The notes beneath the pieces were generated by a model. That model did not search any database and was not told where the DNA came from. It saw nothing but the letters and a program-made list of their open reading frames with translations. Below are positions 153 to 4,853 of a DNA stretch of 4,853 nucleotides, in pieces. Source of the stretch: a virus. Its lineage: Duplodnaviria; Heunggongvirae; Uroviricota; Caudoviricetes. Where the stretch lies: IMG/VR virus record IMGVR_UViG_2706794665_000004. One strand, written 5' to 3'. The translations under genes and the position numbers were made by a program. How positions within the stretch are numbered: position 1 is the stretch's first letter; every line of letters begins with the position of its first letter.

Positions 153-308
153 TTACTCTCTAGATTCGTAGTCTACGAAAACAGCGACCTCCGTCTGGCC
201 GATTCGGATTCGTACCTCGCAGAGGTCTTTCCTCGTTACCAGTGCCGTCACAATGACGGTTAAACAGATGACGATCAGGGCGATTAACATCGCCTTTTGC
301 TGCTTCAT
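153..308 (-). CDS. hok: Hok/Gef-family type I toxin, 51 aa (MKQQKAMLIALIVICLTVIVTALVTRKDLCEVRIRIGQTEVAVFVDYESRE)
   Basis: Internal ATG at 306-308 of the 70-aa ORF, preceded by AAGGAG about 9 nt upstream. Single transmembrane helix, conserved RKDLCE and GQTEVA motifs, TAA stop at 153-155. From memory the first ~35 residues match E. coli HokD/HokC and the C-terminus diverges; not verified by search. Confidence 0.85.
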   Translation of the reverse strand: MKQQKAMLIALIVICLTVIVTALVTRKDLCEVRIRIGQTEVAVFVDYESRE

Positions 309-365
309 AGCCTGCTTCTCCTTGCCTTTCGGCACGTAAGAGGCTAACCTACATTTGTGAGACAT
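153..365 (-). CDS. mok: Mok-like leader ORF, in-frame 19-codon N-terminal extension of hok (MSHKCRLASYVPKGKEKQA + Hok)
   Basis: ATG at 363-365 opens the same frame as hok. The 70-aa product resembles, from memory, chromosomal MokC (basic leader ...KVKEKRAM fused in frame to Hok). Hok/sok biology: mok translation is needed for hok translation. Only a weak GAGG lies upstream. Confidence 0.45.
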   Translation of the reverse strand: MSHKCRLASYVPKGKEKQAMKQQKAMLIALIVICLTVIVTALVTRKDLCEVRIRIGQTEVAVFVDYESRE

Positions 366-415
366 AGATTGGGCCTCAGATTAATGTTAAGCGTCTTGCA
401 GGACGCGTAATGTTA
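357..415 (+). ncRNA. Putative Sok-like antisense RNA complementary to the mok start region (position inferred by analogy, ends not defined)
   Basis: By analogy with hok/sok loci the antitoxin RNA lies antisense across the mok start. Candidate promoter on + strand by eye: TTGCCT 322-327, 17-bp spacer, TAACCT 345-350. Small hairpin GCGTC/GACGC at 391-406, but no clear U-tract terminator. Confidence 0.2.
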
Positions 416-646
416 ACTGGGGCTTTTCTCTGTCTGCCTTACAGTGACATACCCGAGGCAGACAGCCTCAAGCACCCGCAGCAATCTTACCGACACCGAT
501 AAGAAAACGCTATTTTTTATTGCCAGCACCATCTATCCAGGCTAGTTTATCTGCGTCAGAACGGCGCAATGCGCTCGCCTGAGATACGTTTACTTGCCAT
601 GGTAACAACAGGTAACGGCAATTGCTGTTTCTGTTTTGTTTCCTTC

Positions 647-684
647 AAAAACCCCGGACCATCAATCCGGGGTTTTTGTTTGTT
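647..684. terminator. Bidirectional Rho-independent terminator
   Basis: Perfect 7-bp GC-rich stem CCCCGGA (652-658) / TCCGGGG (666-672) with 7-nt loop, flanked by A5 (647-651) and TTTTTGTTTGTT (673-684). This gives a U-tract on both strands. It sits about 80 nt downstream of the DUF551-like gene stop. Confidence 0.75.
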
Positions 685-762
685 AACCCCAACGGCAAAT
701 CGAATACACCACCAGCGCCACCGCCATCGCAATTCCTACCGTGGTGAATGCCTCAGGCCAGG

Positions 763-1128
763 TCATTGATTCACCTCCTGCGGTGGTTCCGGTAGCGGCA
801 TCCAGTGAGTTGAGCTCTCTACTTCAACGCCGTCTTTGTCCACAAAAGCCATCTTATTCCCGCCACGAGTGGGGCAAAAAACCTTATCCCAGGAACCGGG
901 GAATACATTCCCGAGATCATCGAGAAGAATCACATCGCAATATTCAGCAGGAACTGCATCACTACAGCTTATCCAGCCAGCCGGAGCTACCGGAGAGTTG
1001 CCAGCCTTACGCATGGCCATTTCCACGATTTCAACCATATCTCCTGGTGGAATTTTACAAAGTTGCCCAATACATTTCTGCTGCCTGGCATATTCGAGAA
1101 TGTGCTCCAGTTTGGTTCGATTAATCAT
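763..1128 (-). CDS. DUF551-like phage protein, 121 aa
   Basis: ATG at 1126-1128 with GGGAGA Shine-Dalgarno upstream; its start overlaps the TAA stop of the upstream gene (TAATG). C-terminal motif ...GWIS...THWMPLPEPP is as I recall for DUF551 family phage proteins. TGA stop at 763-765. Confidence 0.75.
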   Translation of the reverse strand: MINRTKLEHILEYARQQKCIGQLCKIPPGDMVEIVEMAMRKAGNSPVAPAGWISCSDAVPAEYCDVILLDDLGNVFPGSWDKVFCPTRGGNKMAFVDKDGVEVESSTHWMPLPEPPQEVNQ

Positions 1129-1793
1129 TATTTATCTCCCTTAAGCATGGCAGCGCGGCAGGCGTTCCAGCCATCAACATAATCAAACGTATTACTATCG
1201 TTTGGCCCGATTTCATCCGGCACTATCGGCTCTGGTTGGATAGTGACGTTGGCAAAGGCAGCACGCAAACCGGTTTTAATTTCTTCGATTTCATCAGAGC
1301 CAAGCGATGAATCTGACAGTGCGTGATGGAATGCGTAAGCCATGTCGTCGTTTACTGCAACCGGCACTGCCGGCGCTGCGTAAAGCGGTGTTATATCTGC
1401 CCGAAAATCACATGCTTTATGCAGTCGTACCCAACACTCAACTTCCGCTTTGTCAAAATATATAGCAGTGAACGTATTAGATTCCTGGTCAACTTGAGTA
1501 AACGTCACCTTCCACGCTACAGCTACGGCTTTCCATCCATCAGGTTGTCGCATTCGCGGGGCAGCATAAAGCTCATGCATTCCATCAGGCAGCGAGTGAC
1601 CCACATACTCACCGAACCCGTCAATACACATGCCCCCATCTTCAACAATGCATTCCGCTACAGGCTCTGCTTCCAGTGATGCCAGAGCGATAAGCGCCAG
1701 TTCACGAATTTCACCGCCGTCTATATCGTCAATATCATCGCGGCCAGAAATGTTAGCCAGCCATTGCAGTCGCTCTTTGGTAATAGTGGTCAT
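1128..1793 (-). CDS. Hypothetical acidic phage protein, 221 aa
   Basis: ATG at 1791-1793 overlaps the HNH gene stop (ATGA), with GAAGGGG Shine-Dalgarno upstream. By hand count about 39 Asp/Glu versus 17 Lys/Arg. Internal repeat of an L-Y-A-A-P motif (HELYAAPRM and ITPLYAAPAV). No family recognised. Confidence 0.75.
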   Translation of the reverse strand: MTTITKERLQWLANISGRDDIDDIDGGEIRELALIALASLEAEPVAECIVEDGGMCIDGFGEYVGHSLPDGMHELYAAPRMRQPDGWKAVAVAWKVTFTQVDQESNTFTAIYFDKAEVECWVRLHKACDFRADITPLYAAPAVPVAVNDDMAYAFHHALSDSSLGSDEIEEIKTGLRAAFANVTIQPEPIVPDEIGPNDSNTFDYVDGWNACRAAMLKGDK

Positions 1794-2155
1794 GCCGTAG
1801 CCCCTTCTTGATATTTTTCAAACCAGAACACAACCGGGTCAGATTTCATTTCAACCAATCCCATACGAACCAGCGCTTTGCCTTTCCCGGACGCAAGGAA
1901 TTCACGACGACCATCACTGATAATTCGTCGATAATCTTCCAGGCTACTGCAATGCTTGTGCAGATTGCATGGGTGGCATGCTGGTACCATGTTGGATATA
2001 TCGTCACGTTCCTGGTGAAGCATATTTCCATCAAAACGAATGACCGGTTTTACATGGTCTGCATGCCACTTTTCGCCAAGTTCGCAGCCGCAATAAGCGC
2101 AGCGACCACCGAACTTCATGCGCAGTTCTGCACGTTGTTTTTTCGTCAGTGCCAT
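1790..2155 (-). CDS. HNH (His-Me finger) endonuclease, 121 aa
   Basis: Motifs CAYCGC (CxxC), WHADHVKP (catalytic His), NMVPACHPCNLHK (second CxxC plus Asn/His), the classic zinc-binding HNH arrangement. Start placed at the internal ATG 2153-2155, which has AAGGAAAG upstream; the 30-codon extension to 2245 has no motif support. Confidence 0.88.
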   Translation of the reverse strand: MALTKKQRAELRMKFGGRCAYCGCELGEKWHADHVKPVIRFDGNMLHQERDDISNMVPACHPCNLHKHCSSLEDYRRIISDGRREFLASGKGKALVRMGLVEMKSDPVVFWFEKYQEGATA

Positions 2156-2156
2156 A

Positions 2157-2375
2157 TCAGCTTTCCTTATACGGATTAATTTTATTGTGCAGTGTGTTGA
2201 ATGACGCCCATACCACGTCGTTATACAATTCAATAACTGGCTCAATTATTTTTCCGATTATCCAGACAAAAATTAGCGGGGATATCGGTGTCATCAACAC
2301 GATAAACAGAATGAGAAACAGGAATTCTGTTGTTCTACTCTTTCGCGGATATTTTTTTCTAAATAATGTAACCAT
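2157..2375 (-). CDS. Possible small membrane protein, 72 aa (MVTLFRKKYPRKSRTTEFLFLILFIVLMTPISPLIFVWIIGKII...)
   Basis: ORF with a basic N-terminus followed by one strongly hydrophobic transmembrane-like segment. Its TGA stop (2157-2159) lies 1 nt from the HNH ATG, consistent with translational coupling. Against it: AT-rich with rare codons, weak Shine-Dalgarno partly buried in a hairpin; could be noncoding. Confidence 0.3.
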   Translation of the reverse strand: MVTLFRKKYPRKSRTTEFLFLILFIVLMTPISPLIFVWIIGKIIEPVIELYNDVVWASFNTLHNKINPYKES

Positions 2376-2380
2376 TCATT

Positions 2381-2398
2381 ACCGCCCTTTCGGGCGGT
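2381..2398 (-). terminator. GC-rich hairpin with GAAA tetraloop (ACCGCCC-GAAA-GGGCGGT on minus strand), possible partial terminator or attenuator between replication genes and the HNH cassette
   Basis: Perfect 7-bp stem and 4-nt loop seen directly in sequence. The downstream minus-strand sequence AAUGAAUGGUUACAUUAUUU is only moderately U-rich, so function as an intrinsic terminator is uncertain. Confidence 0.3.
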
Positions 2399-2467
2399 CT
2401 CCTGATGATTTGAGGGTGCAGAAATCCCTCCGGTTAAGGATTAAATTTTTAACAGTGCTAAATTTAA

Positions 2468-2881
2468 TTATTCAGTTCTGGATTTTGTCGCCCTGCGTAT
2501 CCGCGCTTTCGCGTTACGCTCAATCTGTATCAGCTTTTCTATATTTCTCCGCCTTTCCTGTTCCTCCTGGCGCAATAGCCTTACATCATCTGCCAGTCTG
2601 GTTTCTCTTTTTGCCACAGAGAGCATCCAGTCAAACGGCTCCACAACCGCACCGCAGATTTTACAGCGGACCTGACGCTCTTTTTCGTCAACCCGGACAG
2701 AGGCGTGATGGCAATATGGTCTTTCCGATGGTTCATAAAGAAAATTAACCTGATTACGTGGGTCATCCTCTTTTACCGGAAATAAAACGATATTGCTTAA
2801 CTCATCTTGGTGATGCTGCCAACTTACTGATTTAGTGTATGATGGTGTTTTTGAGGTGCGAAGCCTGATAGCTAATTTCAT
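2468..2881 (-). CDS. Hypothetical phage protein with putative zinc-ribbon (C-H-H ... CxxC) and basic coiled-coil C-terminus, 137 aa
   Basis: ATG at 2879-2881 immediately follows the TGA of the upstream gene (TGAATG), with AGGAGG 11 nt upstream. Motif PYCHHASVRVDEKERQVRCKICG. TAA stop at 2468-2470. Confidence 0.7.
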   Translation of the reverse strand: MKLAIRLRTSKTPSYTKSVSWQHHQDELSNIVLFPVKEDDPRNQVNFLYEPSERPYCHHASVRVDEKERQVRCKICGAVVEPFDWMLSVAKRETRLADDVRLLRQEEQERRRNIEKLIQIERNAKARIRRATKSRTE

Positions 2882-3304
2882 TCACAGTATCGCCTCCTGA
2901 AAATTACCCTGATAGAAAGCCAGTACACGCTGCATAGCTTCGCTCTTCCGGCACTCGCGACAGATTATATTCAGGCGCCTGTCGTAGCGGCGTATTTCTC
3001 CGTCAGGTAATGACCAGATAAGGTCCGGATCAACAACAACCGGTTTCCTCACCTTTACTCTCGAGAGTTTTTTGCGGGCGCTTTGCCAGTCCTTGCGAGC
3101 CTGTTCAGACGGGAATAAGCCGTAGCCAGAATTATATACATCACCACTTGCGACCAGTTCTATGCATAAGCGACCGACAGACGCACGACTGATACCTGTT
3201 TCATCTGACAACTGCCGAATCGTGACCCGACCGTCCTGATGCACGAGTTCCACAATTCGCGTCTTCAGTTCTTCCCGCTGTTCGGGAGTAAAAGGTTTCG
3301 CCAT
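2882..3304 (-). CDS. Winged-helix/HTH DNA-binding protein, 140 aa
   Basis: ATG at 3302-3304 with strong AGGAGG Shine-Dalgarno (3309-3314 on + strand). HTH-like segment TIRQLSDETGISRASVGRLCIELVASG. Located directly downstream of the DnaC-like gene. Confidence 0.78.
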   Translation of the reverse strand: MAKPFTPEQREELKTRIVELVHQDGRVTIRQLSDETGISRASVGRLCIELVASGDVYNSGYGLFPSEQARKDWQSARKKLSRVKVRKPVVVDPDLIWSLPDGEIRRYDRRLNIICRECRKSEAMQRVLAFYQGNFQEAIL

Positions 3305-3318
3305 AAATCCTCCTGAAA

Positions 3319-4065
3319 CTACTTAACAACCCTCGAATGGCTAACATTCGGACGCCAGCTCTCCCAGTTAAAATTCACCCAGCGCCCGCCGTTCATGACC
3401 ATGCGATCCATCACCCGCTCGCCGAGCAATGTTTTCATCACCTCATAGTTCAGGTTTGTCAGCATCCCCACGCTGCGCATCGACGCTGTCCGGCGATCAA
3501 CAATCTGGTGCAGCACCACCTGCTCGTTTTTCGTCTCGCGCTGAATGCCAATTTCATCAAGAACCAGCAGATCCACTTCGCACAGCTCCCGCAAAAATTT
3601 TTCGCCTGACTGCCCGTCGTCATAGCTGGCGTGCAGGGCGCTCATAACATCAGCCACGGTAACCACAATCACTGTCTGACCGTCTTTCAGCAGGCGATTC
3701 CCGATAGCTGCCGCTAAGTGATTCTTCCCGGTACCAGGTTTTCCGCTGAACGCAAAATTTGTACACCCGGTCATCAGTTCATCGGCGATGGATTTCGCCT
3801 GGCTTAACGCGTATCGCTGGCCGTCGTTCTGCACCTGGTAATTCGCAAACGAGCATTTACGGTGCAACGGCTGGATGCCTGAGCGATTCAGAATTTTTTC
3901 CACCCGCAACTGGCGATTCAGGCGGTTGATCTCCTCGCTACGTTTCTGGCCTTCAGCAAGTTGCCACTCGCGCCACTCCGCTACCGTTCTGAATGGGGCG
4001 GTTACATGTGGCGGGGTCAGTCGGCGGATGCGTTCCAGAACGCCGCCTGTCGCAATATTTTTCAT
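3319..4065 (-). CDS. ydaV: Prophage DnaC-family AAA+ helicase loader / replication protein (YdaV-like), 248 aa
   Basis: Walker A motif GKPGTGKNHL, Walker B-like DLLVLDEIG, overall DnaC/IstB-like architecture. N-terminus MKNIATGGVLERIRRL resembles Rac prophage YdaV as I recall it; symbol is by similarity, not verified. ATG 4063-4065, TAG stop 3319-3321. Confidence 0.9.
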   Translation of the reverse strand: MKNIATGGVLERIRRLTPPHVTAPFRTVAEWREWQLAEGQKRSEEINRLNRQLRVEKILNRSGIQPLHRKCSFANYQVQNDGQRYALSQAKSIADELMTGCTNFAFSGKPGTGKNHLAAAIGNRLLKDGQTVIVVTVADVMSALHASYDDGQSGEKFLRELCEVDLLVLDEIGIQRETKNEQVVLHQIVDRRTASMRSVGMLTNLNYEVMKTLLGERVMDRMVMNGGRWVNFNWESWRPNVSHSRVVK

Positions 4066-4071
4066 GGTCCG

Positions 4072-4748
4072 TTACCCCCTGAAGCCTGGCGGGATCGCAC
4101 TGTCCGGCAACGAGACGGTGTTAACCTGTCGGAGCAACGTCTCAGGCCGAACACCTTTCGGCGCGAACAGGCCCTGGTATTCATTGGCGATGCTGTGTCG
4201 AATCACCTGCTCAGGTGTAAAACCCTGCTGACGGAATTTTTCCAGTTCCCGTATCGCCCCGTTAGCGCCCTGCTCCGTTCGAATCGGTTTTCGCAATGCC
4301 TGTCTGAACCGGACCCACTCATGCCAGAGTGTTTCCGGCAACCAATCGGGCAGCTCAATAGCCTCCGGCTCGAATTTTTTAGACGCTCGTTTTTGGCGAG
4401 GGGGAGATCAGTATTTAGATCTTCCTCTTCCTCTTCCTCTGGTAACGCTTTTTGATCCGTTTGTGTAACGCTGGCAGCGTTACCTTTTCGTTTCAGTTCG
4501 CGTATTTTTGTTACTCGCTCGTTTGTAACCGCCCGTTTTTTTTAGAGCTTTTTCCGTTATGACGTTCAAAGTTAGGTAGAGAAAGCCCTCCGTCATTTTC
4601 GACCAGCCATCCAACCTGAATTAACGCATCAGCAAAACCAGACATAAAAGTGATGCGATCTATTGCACTTTTTGTAACGCCGCGAGCGTTACAATCTGCA
4701 TTACCGTCTATCATTTGTTGATCCGCCCATGCCCAGAAGCGAATAACC
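4072..4748 (-). pseudogene. Disrupted ydaU-like (DUF1376-type) replication-initiator gene: 5' end truncated by IS insertion and split over three reading frames
   Basis: Three consecutive stop-free minus-strand frames tile the region: 4748-4514, about 4541-4380, and 4407-4075. The switches fall at an A8 run (4536-4543) and an A6 run (4375-4380) on the coding strand. Position immediately upstream of the DnaC-like gene matches the ydaU-ydaV arrangement in Rac. The 87-aa ORF's apparent GTG start (4772-4774) lies inside the IS terminal repeat. Confidence 0.6.
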
Positions 4749-4853
4749 TGAGGTAGCCTGAGTTTAACGGACACTCCTTCCTGAAATAGAATGGCATCAG
4801 AAGGAGCTAATAATGAGCAGAAAAACCCAACGTTACTCTAAAGAGTTCAAAGC
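4749..4853 (+). mobile_element. Left end of an IS3-family insertion sequence (IS600-like), continuing beyond the window
   Basis: Terminus begins TGAGGTAGCCTGAG at 4749 (IS3-family ends start with TG). AAGGAG at 4801-4806 and orfA ATG at 4813, about 64 nt from the end, as typical for the family. Assignment to IS600 is from memory of its end sequence and OrfA N-terminus. Confidence 0.8.
4813..4853 (+). CDS. IS3-family transposase OrfA, N-terminal fragment (MSRKTQRYSKEFK...), runs off window
   Basis: ATG at 4813 with AAGGAG 6 nt upstream. N-terminal sequence has the basic, KEFK-containing start typical of IS3-family OrfA HTH proteins. Confidence 0.8.
   Translation, partial: MSRKTQRYSKEFK

Follow-up and report, generated by a model that had tools for sequence, protein, structure and literature searches.

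Probable exchangeable single-gene cassettes in the nin-equivalent region of a defective, Rac-type lambdoid prophage

Mosaic accessory regions and small HNH nucleases

HK97 gp74 is a small stand-alone HNH nuclease of about 110-120 aa with two CxxC zinc pairs and a DH...N...N core, and the HNH family is also a classic one among the free-standing homing endonucleases of phages, whose genes include T4 mob and seg and SPO1 I-HmuI. Prophage accessory regions often carry defence or anti-defence genes. [quoted passage not shown] YfdS, the DUF551 protein of the yfdQRST cluster, damps DnaA-dependent initiation (PMC4776307). A literature search on mosaic boundaries returned nothing relevant, and no mention of 'DUF4014' was found in the literature search.

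We analyzed a coupled gene array within a window of 4,853 nucleotides (the whole stretch of DNA analysed, IMG/VR record IMGVR_UViG_2706794665_000004). Like the lambda nin region and its equivalents in Rac, DLP12 and Qin, the array lies between replication genes and a late-gene activator, consists of dense, coupled small ORFs running up to a terminator, and has accessory content; it differs in that the window contains no NinB, NinG, RusA or other nin-family gene, and the HNH protein of the array is not a member of NinG. The same DUF4014-HNH block is found in Stx phage ArgO145, in the early-left ea region among 'ead/Ea22-like' genes, whereas the genes studied here lie downstream of the replication genes, at the nin-equivalent position, rather than between exo and xis.

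Taken together, the region is probably where the early rightward operon of a defective Shigella/E. coli prophage, lambdoid and of Rac type, has its distal end, and it would be made up of five exchangeable single-gene cassettes. These would be independently exchangeable at the nin-equivalent position rather than parts of one multi-protein system. Two types of joint connect them. In the first, the upstream gene has a Shine-Dalgarno sequence (SD) inside its final codons, and the stop, one base and the next start come after it; in the second, start and stop overlap as ATGA or TAATG. Whole ORFs would be gained, lost and swapped exactly at start and stop codons. We regard the locus as an ordinary mosaic accessory region of the nin/ea type; it offers little new biology, and its analysis removes a false lead.

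Gene content and joints of the array

The features of the array and its surroundings are as follows.

3304..2882, minus strand: DUF977/Ren-like gene, between the cassette and the DnaC-like replication gene
2881..2468, minus strand: gene for a 137-aa zinc-ribbon protein, between the cassette and the DnaC-like replication gene
2381..2403, minus strand: 5' leader of the DUF4014 cassette (sequence reading)
2375..2157, minus strand: DUF4014 small membrane protein, 72 aa (Pfam PF13198, PHROG 1832, composition)
2155..1790, minus strand: predicted stand-alone HNH (beta-beta-alpha-metal) zinc-finger nuclease, 121 aa (PF01844)
1793..1128, minus strand: acidic 221-aa mosaic protein of the Ea22/DUF551 'MTT-leader' family (BLAST module map)
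1128..763, minus strand: DUF551 protein, 121 aa (PF04448; PHROG 924 and 24004)
766..683, minus strand: hydrophobic 27-aa ORF (MTWPEAFTTVGIAMAVALVVYSICRWG), a fifth gene overlooked earlier (sequence reading)
646..678, both strands: bidirectional intrinsic terminator with A-run, CCCCGGA...TCCGGGG stem and T-run (terminator scan and sequence reading)

The minus strand carries the four genes at 763-2375, in the order DUF4014, HNH, 221-aa acidic protein and DUF551. Reading the sequence gave the same joints as the first-pass annotation: a 1-nt gap between DUF4014 and HNH (TGA-T-ATG), a 4-nt overlap between HNH and the 221-aa gene (ATGA), and a 1-nt overlap between the latter and DUF551 (TAATG). Scanning for promoters and terminators gave no candidate site of either kind on the minus strand between 763 and 2375, and the earlier proposal of one operon with coupled translation holds for this dense unit, which the terminator at 646-678 closes. 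Every boundary in the array is a standard coupling joint; close coupling thus characterises arrays of this kind and is no evidence of partnership. More generally, start and stop codons that overlap tightly in the early operons of lambdoid phages mark generic boundaries and are unsafe as a sign of a functional module. Plus-strand ORFs at 741-1124, 836-1144, 1323-1679, 1808-2179 and 2149-2748 had no family match and were rejected as spurious antisense frames. No Rfam family matched within the cassette, the sole match being sok at 303-477.

E. coli VL40 has a near-identical prophage, in which the cassette is flanked by the replication genes on one side and by hok, DUF1367, DUF1364 and a DUF1133/Q-like gene on the other, which agrees with the analogy to the nin region drawn earlier; the order replication genes, DUF977, cassette, hok and YbcN/YbcO/Q-like genes is that of a Rac-like prophage. 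The cassette had also been placed between the replication module and the terminator. Its nin-like position stands, but the DUF977 and zinc-ribbon genes intervene on one side, and on the other the 27-aa ORF is the true last gene.

The HNH gene starts at the ATG at 2155, the TTG at 2245 heading only a mechanical ORF. Its product matches PF01844 over residues 19-68 with 28.2 bits, above the Pfam gathering threshold of 21.4, and C19, C22, H31, D33, H34, N55, C60, C63, N64, K67, F110 and E113 are invariant in a family alignment of 42 members. Both the sequence and the AlphaFold model (pLDDT 89.4) contain the putative catalytic D-H, the structural N, the metal-binding N/H and two CxxC zinc pairs, and the core of the model superposes on the HNH domains of Cas9, Cap5, Gme and McrA. 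These observations uphold the earlier designation of the protein as a probable HNH endonuclease. Searched as a single sequence, it matched no PDB sequence, while the family profile recovered HNH cores only, the nearest being the Geobacter Gme HNH nicking endonuclease (4H9D, E 1.8e-4). The two have in common a length of about 110-120 aa, two CxxC pairs, the DH...N...N core and an overlapping HNH-core fold; the match is limited to a core of about 55 residues, whereas the C-terminal helices and the C-terminal tail (GLV...PVVFWFE) are specific to the family of the cassette protein. Third codon positions account for 64 of the 85 variable sites, and family members as distant as that of Comamonas still measure 120-140 aa, as would suit a retained function. 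Judged from sequence, the gene is a self-contained, predicted nuclease cassette under strong purifying selection, whose enzyme would nick or cut DNA non-specifically or in a structure-dependent manner in phage DNA metabolism, or would merely propagate itself. Roles for this and the other four proteins are suggested by family membership.

The 221-aa protein contains 22 D, 17 E, 8 K and 9 R residues (D+E 17.6%), giving a pI of 4.34 and a net charge of -22, which agrees with an earlier hand count of about -22. BLAST against 120 homologues divides it into modules A (1-46), B (47-87), C (88-136) and D (137-221), with charges of -6, -6, -1 and -9, respectively, in a poorly modelled protein. Module D is shared with the Ea22 family of the lambda/Stx exo-xis 'ea' region (IPR025153), forming the C-terminal part of the Ead_Ea22 (PF13935) proteins P0044, P0054 and P0093, and modules A and D together are common to DUF551 proteins, being fused to DUF551 in P0035. 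[quoted passage not shown] The downstream 121-aa protein consists of a 50-aa N-terminal part followed by a DUF551 domain at residues 51-117 (PF04448, 69.9 bits against a cut-off of 22), in agreement with its earlier description as DUF551-like, and no similar sequence was found in the PDB. Both proteins belong to the Ea22/DUF551 mosaic family, in which an N-terminal leader is combined with swappable, generally acidic modules.

The first-pass annotation had suggested that the acidic protein could be an anti-restriction DNA mimic. Profile searches, which identified the DUF551 domain in its neighbour, returned for the 221-aa protein no Pfam (E up to 0.01), NCBIfam or PADLOC match, and only PHROGs of unknown function, each covering part of the protein; PDB sequences gave nothing meaningful. 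The AlphaFold model, built from 57 sequences, reached a pLDDT of 52.6 and was confident only at residues 90-138, and Foldseek found no PDB match with E <0.1. Structure prediction therefore speaks neither for nor against a mimic, while no Pfam, PHROG-function, PADLOC, PDB sequence or fold match connects the protein with Ocr, ArdA or other mimic families. Like Ocr and ArdA it is acidic, but its acidity is modest and a family trait, since 116 of the 120 homologues have a pI <5. The mimic proposal is not sustained by these results, and for acidic members of the Ea22/DUF551 family charge alone is insufficient to diagnose a DNA mimic. Because lambda Ea22 favours lysogeny and YfdS damps DnaA-dependent initiation, the 221-aa and DUF551 proteins may, by analogy, modulate phage or host development by binding proteins, rather than act as DNA mimics.

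Distribution of the cassettes and readings of the nuclease

By megablast, which misses divergent copies, the full cassette (>=80% query coverage) is present in 2 of 5426 complete E. coli genomes, as is the full 221-aa gene, while DUF4014 and HNH together are present in 217 of 5426. The cassette is abundant in Shigella, with the exact 221-aa sequence on at least 1000 Shigella contigs, and in IMG/VR the full cassette occurs as one haplotype only, 98-100% identical. Its component genes are found separately in hundreds of genomes. Among 80 HNH-bearing viral contigs (the best-scoring 80 of 469, partly redundant), the HNH gene occurs in about 45 neighbour architectures, in both ea-type and nin-type regions and at 96-100% amino acid identity, and the joints around it are invariant in all of them: +1 upstream and -4 (ATGA) downstream. 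The same joints in every architecture are therefore generic cassette boundaries and no evidence of partnership. Where the upstream gene is DUF4014 it ends in ...KES*, and the other sampled upstream genes end in ...KGE/KGD*, encoding the SD. Counting the 80 viral contigs, three annotated records and the window as 84 loci, DUF4014 directly precedes HNH in 59, and many E. coli genomes carry DUF4014 without HNH; since the two are often adjacent and can be inserted together, a functional link may exist between them alone.

The empty-site junction AAAGGAGAGTGATRTGACYAC was found in 109 viral contigs, and the HNH-less empty junction reads ...AAAGGAGAGTGATATGACCACT.... Contig L142, without HNH, shares both flanks with L047, which has it, and further presence/absence pairs are formed by L142 with L050, L055 and L053 and by L129 with L057, where DUF4014 and HNH were inserted as one unit. 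HNH-less sites carry the same flanks, which marks HNH, by itself or jointly with DUF4014, as inserted precisely at a start codon. More distant relatives have no conserved partner: the Yersinia relative lies near NinB and RusA with no coupled downstream gene, the Klebsiella relative near NinG, followed by a leader plus DUF551 protein, and the Comamonas relative near an integrase with unrelated small ORFs downstream. Co-occurrence across diverged relatives was therefore not observed, and because the four genes fail to co-occur in related prophages, an outcome that the first-pass annotation had itself taken as counting against its proposal, the neighbourhood comparison speaks against the functional four-gene module, whether nuclease with partner or defence/anti-defence, that had been proposed.

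That module would pair an HNH effector with an acidic partner, or supply the mimic discussed above, and defence and anti-defence genes are indeed frequent in prophage accessory regions. In addition to the net charge of -22, the HNH core weakly resembles the PADLOC models of Septu PtuB and PDC-M01B (best E 3.2e-8, 31.6 bits). These matches span the generic HNH core only, however, and the PtuA ATPase is absent beside the cassette; the retron-associated HNH model TIGR02646 scored 21.8 against a curated cut-off of 52.15, with no retron nearby, and IscB (NF040563) 23.8 against 175. PtuB, retron-type and IscB identities for the HNH protein were rejected on these scores and neighbourhoods. No PADLOC defence model matched the 221-aa, DUF551 or DUF4014 proteins, the genes co-occur only in the single haplotype, and the acidic protein is mosaic, with a family-wide acidity, a D+E content and a model, lacking any fold match, that do not favour the proposal; we consider a defence or anti-defence module very improbable. 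It is scarcely to be expected, too, that HNH and the downstream acidic protein form a nuclease-inhibitor pair in the style of colicin DNases and their immunity proteins, with the MTT-leader domain neutralising the nuclease. All 80 enterobacterial viral loci have a gene overlapping the HNH stop by ATGA, every sampled one beginning with MTT, the 221-aa leader family is acidic, and the Klebsiella relative likewise precedes a leader plus DUF551 protein. However, the Yersinia and Comamonas relatives lack such a downstream gene, leader-family genes are common without an upstream HNH (the 109 empty-site contigs), and the leaders adjoining HNH vary widely. In Enterobacteriaceae the gene following HNH nearly always opens with this kind of MTT leader, a loose association of HNH with 'a leader-family protein', although the same leader genes also occur without HNH.

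Two further readings concern the nuclease itself. As a DNA-processing enzyme of benefit to the phage, it would be structure-specific and resolve recombination or replication intermediates in the manner of lambda Rap/NinG or T4 endonuclease VII, or assist the terminase as HK97 gp74 does, which we consider rather unlikely. The nin-equivalent position, the purifying selection, the proximity to 4H9D, a match to PHROG 'endonuclease VII' (E 2.8e-12) and a sub-threshold NinG match are consistent with such a role. The NinG match (PF05766), however, reaches 18.2 bits against a cut-off of 25.4 and covers only profile positions 93-147 of 193, and relatives share their nin region with NinG or RusA, so that a substitute for either was rejected. 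Terminase genes never adjoin HNH in the loci examined; whereas a gp74-type gene would have terminase and portal neighbours at the end of the late operon, HNH lies in the early region, away from terminase, at every locus examined. HNH is also dispensable, as HNH-less arrays are common.

It appears distinctly unlikely to us that HNH, on its own or in combination with DUF4014, constitutes a selfish endonuclease cassette of the homing type. Such an enzyme would cut HNH-less arrays at or near 'SD-stop-N-ATG ACC ACN' and be copied in by repair, and its cutting could also drive shuffling of neighbouring cassettes. Free-standing homing genes have in common with the cassette the HNH family, classic among such endonucleases, and insertion between genes, and here the nuclease ORF is exactly present or absent at the start codon between homologous flanks, with the same gene recurring in the many contexts described above. 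They differ from it in that this 121-aa protein has no recognisable DNA-recognition domain or DNA-binding extension beyond the short tail, and identical HNH nucleotide alleles always have identical neighbours, which gives no sign of very recent spread; very recent homing was rejected for this reason. Because DUF4014 comes and goes at the same kind of joint and adjacent genes are mosaic, ordinary recombination suffices, and the conserved family length fits a retained function. A more specific form, in which HNH is a minimal homing-type nuclease targeting the 'AAGGAG-stop-N-ATG ACC ACN' joint between Ea22-family cassettes and its breaks fuel ea/nin mosaicism, is highly doubtful; if true, it would provide a mechanism for that mosaicism, although no finding here favours it. 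As a by-product, the analysis documents a nuclease ORF present or absent exactly at a start codon.

The DUF4014 leader and the terminal 27-aa ORF

Two further by-products concern the ends of the array. At its distal end, the ATG of the 27-aa ORF overlaps the DUF551 stop (ATGA), and 4 nt separate its own stop from the terminator stem. This conserved ORF closes 54 related loci, whichever gene precedes it, and occurs in 88 phage records at 63-100% amino acid identity, with 7, 2 and 14 variable sites at first, second and third codon positions. It lacks annotation in the records inspected, although a few other records annotate it, and its product is probably a single-pass membrane peptide.

At the proximal end, the small membrane ORF recognised by the first-pass annotation is the 72-aa DUF4014 protein, which matches PF13198 with 90 bits (gathering threshold 23.2) over residues 1-71, aligned to profile positions 1-71 of 72. 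It has a basic N-terminus and one hydrophobic helix, which would suit a single-pass membrane peptide, and its gene has a GC content of 35.6%. In the leader, the SD AGGAG (2403..2399) is followed by a GAAA-looped hairpin of 18 nt (2398..2381) and, 5 nt on, by the ATG at 2375; the RNA fold has an energy of -20 kcal/mol (z -3.3). The SD-hairpin-AUG leader travels with DUF4014 and is presumably functional: the arrangement CAGGAG-RCCGCCYGAAAGGGCGGT-AAKRA-ATG is kept 5' of DUF4014 in most related loci, despite divergent DNA farther upstream.

Gene order and coupling of the cassette

Every real gene of the window lies on the minus strand, and plus-strand ORFs across the region gave no family matches. 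In the order of transcription, the features are as follows:

4774..4511 and 4341..4072 (-): YdaU/O-like replication initiator, broken into two fragments
4065..3319 (-): DnaC-like helicase loader
3304..2882 (-): DUF977/Ren-like protein
2881..2468 (-): zinc-ribbon protein, 137 aa, separated from the cassette by a 92-nt spacer
2376-2420 (-): DUF4014 leader, with Shine-Dalgarno (SD) sequence (AGGAG), 18-nt GC hairpin with GAAA loop, and AUG
2375..2157 (-): DUF4014, 72 aa
2155..1790 (-): HNH, 121 aa
1793..1128 (-): 221-aa acidic protein
1128..763 (-): DUF551 protein
766..683 (-): 27-aa hydrophobic ORF, its own stop 4 nt before the terminator stem
646-678: terminator
365..153 (-): hok/mok gene (Pfam HOK_GEF, E 1.7e-21)
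303-477: sok RNA of the hok/mok locus (Rfam, 118 bits)

Reading the sequence confirmed the four ORFs and three joints described in the first-pass annotation: DUF4014 and HNH are joined by TGA-T-ATG, HNH and the 221-aa gene by ATGA, and the 221-aa gene and DUF551 by TAATG. Its gene list was incomplete, however, as it missed the 27-aa ORF (MTWPEAFTTVGIAMAVALVVYSICRWG, window 683-766), whose ATG overlaps the DUF551 stop through a further ATGA. HNH starts at the ATG at 2155 and not at the TTG with which the mechanical ORF opens further upstream. A scan of the minus strand within the cassette returned no promoter-like or terminator-like site, and the five cassettes form one coupled transcription unit.

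The window DNA belongs to a Rac-like lambdoid prophage. For each of the 221-aa, DUF551 and DUF4014 proteins, the exact sequence was found on at least 1000 contigs bearing the name Shigella sonnei or S. flexneri, and E. coli VL40 carries a cassette copy that is 99.8% identical. In VL40 the replication genes stand on one side of the stretch, and hok, DUF1367, DUF1364 and a DUF1133 (Q-like) gene on the other. This placement is that of the lambda nin region and bears out the analogy drawn earlier for its location. The YdaU/O-like initiator is split between frames (window 4072-4853), fitting the 'defective prophage' label, and the sequence beyond about 4745, up to the edge of the window, is multi-copy, annotated as 'transposase' in 3060 E. 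coli genomes (IS insertion). Possible origin iterons are the palindromic TGTAACGC...GCGTTAC repeats found at 4460-4483 and at 4669-4693. Directly after the terminator, hok/mok/sok makes up a complete type I toxin-antitoxin locus (window 153-477, minus strand), and Stx phages repeat the order 27-aa ORF, terminator, hok.

Independent assortment and standard joints

The first-pass annotation had interpreted the four genes as a candidate accessory or defence/anti-defence module. While the underlying observation was correct, the module interpretation is not supported by co-occurrence, a check which that annotation had itself proposed and by which the four genes do not belong together: at ≥80% query coverage in 5426 complete E. 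coli genomes, the whole cassette (683-2405) was present in 2 and the DUF4014+HNH pair in 217, and the full-length 221-aa gene was found in the same 2 genomes as the whole cassette, with partial copies in 246. Each of this pair is also found without the other: E. coli UTI89, for one, has HNH but no DUF4014, and many O157:H7 strains have DUF4014 but no HNH. We also reconstructed gene chains for the best 80 of 469 IMG/VR contigs (HNH 96-100% identical), which revealed about 45 HNH neighbour architectures. In this sample, the HNH, 221-aa and DUF551 arrangement is a single haplotype (98-100% identical). Most frequent among the other arrangements is DUF4014-HNH-114 aa-27 aa; Stx phage ArgO145 has this version, surrounded by 'ead/Ea22-like' genes of its early-left ea region. 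The Yersinia relative of HNH (74% identity) has NinB upstream and YbcO/RusA downstream, the Klebsiella relative (61%) is accompanied by a 341-aa leader plus DUF551 protein and then NinE/NinG/Q, and the Comamonas relative (47%) neighbours a 551-aa protein near an integrase. The cassettes assort independently.

Across the best 80 of 469 contigs, the gap between the upstream gene and the HNH ATG was 1 nt and the HNH stop was overlapped via ATGA by the next gene, whatever the neighbours. Sampled upstream genes, except DUF4014 (...KES*), terminate in ...KGE* or ...KGD*, their closing codons AAA GGA GAG TGA serving as the SD sequence for the next gene, and all sampled downstream genes open with ATG ACC ACN (MTT). 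The HNH-less joint AAAGGAGAGTGATRTGACYAC was found on 109 viral contigs. In 76 of these, the gene after the joint matches one located behind HNH elsewhere, over an alignment of at least 150 nt. The HNH-less viral locus L142 reads ...ATCAAAGGAGAGTGAT followed directly by ATGACCACTATAACC..., and in locus L047 these flanks enclose the HNH ORF, inserted precisely at the start codon and adding ~362 nt; comparison of loci L129 and L057 revealed DUF4014 and HNH inserted as a pair at a joint of this type. Gain or loss of HNH, by itself or together with DUF4014, takes place precisely at a start codon.

Since the joints stay the same whatever the neighbours and have HNH-less counterparts, tight coupling represents the standard boundary of interchangeable cassettes rather than the mark of a four-protein system. 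That the HNH nuclease itself targets these joints and drives the shuffling appears improbable to us. It is classical knowledge that the novel joints of lambdoid phages coincide with the borders of genes. The genes described here, the families they belong to and the principle of mosaicism are already known and annotated.

The HNH, DUF4014 and 27-aa products

The HNH protein exceeds the Pfam HNH threshold. Members of its family are 120-140 aa long, range from Enterobacterales to Comamonas and share the invariant residues C19, C22, H31, D33, H34, N55, C60, C63, N64 and K67, together with a family-specific C-terminal motif in which F110 and E113 are invariant. The AlphaFold model of the HNH protein is confident (pLDDT 89.4), and its core superposes, at E-values that are weak throughout, on HNH domains from Cas9, CBASS Cap5, the Gme nicking endonuclease, McrA and T4 endonuclease VII; the closest solved sequence to the family is 4H9D (E 1.8e-4). 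Assignments to NinG, TIGR02646 and IscB fell under the cut-off, and no PtuA was found beside HNH. Variable sites are distributed 14/7/64 by codon position, a strong third-position bias indicating that the protein is maintained by selection, and identical HNH nucleotide alleles always had identical neighbours, giving no sign of very recent spread. We infer that the enzyme would nick or cut DNA in phage DNA metabolism, or merely propagate itself.

DUF4014, presumably a single-pass membrane peptide, has a GC content of 35.6% (2157-2375) versus 48-49% in the three downstream genes, which suggests a different cassette origin. Its leader has a predicted fold of -20 kcal/mol (z -3.3) and may act as a split SD or in the control of translation. 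The SD-hairpin-AUG unit accompanies DUF4014 even where the upstream DNA differs, and a second DUF4014 class without the unit has a GTG start after a normal SD. One Shigella sonnei protein record (P0122, 194 aa, one short contig only) fuses DUF4014 and HNH in a single ORF (PF13198 + PF01844), probably because the stop codon and the single spacer nucleotide were lost.

Variation in the 27-aa ORF favours third codon positions (7/2/14 in 54 related loci), and diverged copies with 63-100% amino acid identity hold the reading frame (88 phage records), so this ORF is probably a real gene; its product would be a single-pass membrane peptide. Many lambdoid and Stx phages have this ORF as the final member of the array, regardless of the preceding gene, and it is without annotation in the records inspected.

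The acidic protein and its DUF551 neighbour

BLAST against the 120 best homologues divided the 221-aa protein into modules A (1-46), B (47-87), C (88-136) and D (137-221). Relatives combine A+D followed by a DUF551 domain (e.g. P0035, 264 aa), A+B alone, C+D alone and more besides, and module D is the C-terminus of Ead_Ea22 (PF13935) proteins such as P0044. These combinations assign the protein to the mosaic Ea22/DUF551 family of 'leader plus modules' proteins, to which the adjoining 121-aa DUF551 protein belongs as well. Ea22 proteins are mosaics with a common N-terminal part and unrelated, mostly acidic C-terminal domains, one variant having DUF551 (PMC10834534).

The composition D22 E17 K8 R9 (pI 4.34) agrees with the net charge of -22 counted previously, and the charge is distributed across all four modules. 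The suggestion of a DNA mimic found no support: searches of Pfam, NCBIfam, PADLOC and PDB returned no match, and acidity is a family trait, with pI <5 in 116 of the 120 best homologues and a median net charge of -0.09 per residue. The AlphaFold model is too poor for a structural verdict (pLDDT 52.6, confident solely at residues 90-138), and no fold relative was found with it. By analogy with lambda Ea22, described in PMC7093339 as promoting lysogeny, and with YfdS/DUF551, which adds to yfdQRST inhibition of DnaA-dependent initiation (PMC4776307), the acidic proteins might be binders of host or phage proteins that tune development.

Two cluster members (P0242, P0244) carry the name 'valyl-tRNA synthetase' for the 221-aa protein, an evident misannotation. 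Short linkers (LYAAP..., AEPV/AEPI, NSPVTPDGW) recur between the modules of Ea22/DUF551-family proteins, located at residues 74-80 and 146-151 of the 221-aa protein and also present in viral loci L047, L053 and L079. They resemble a within-gene version of the standard joints between genes.
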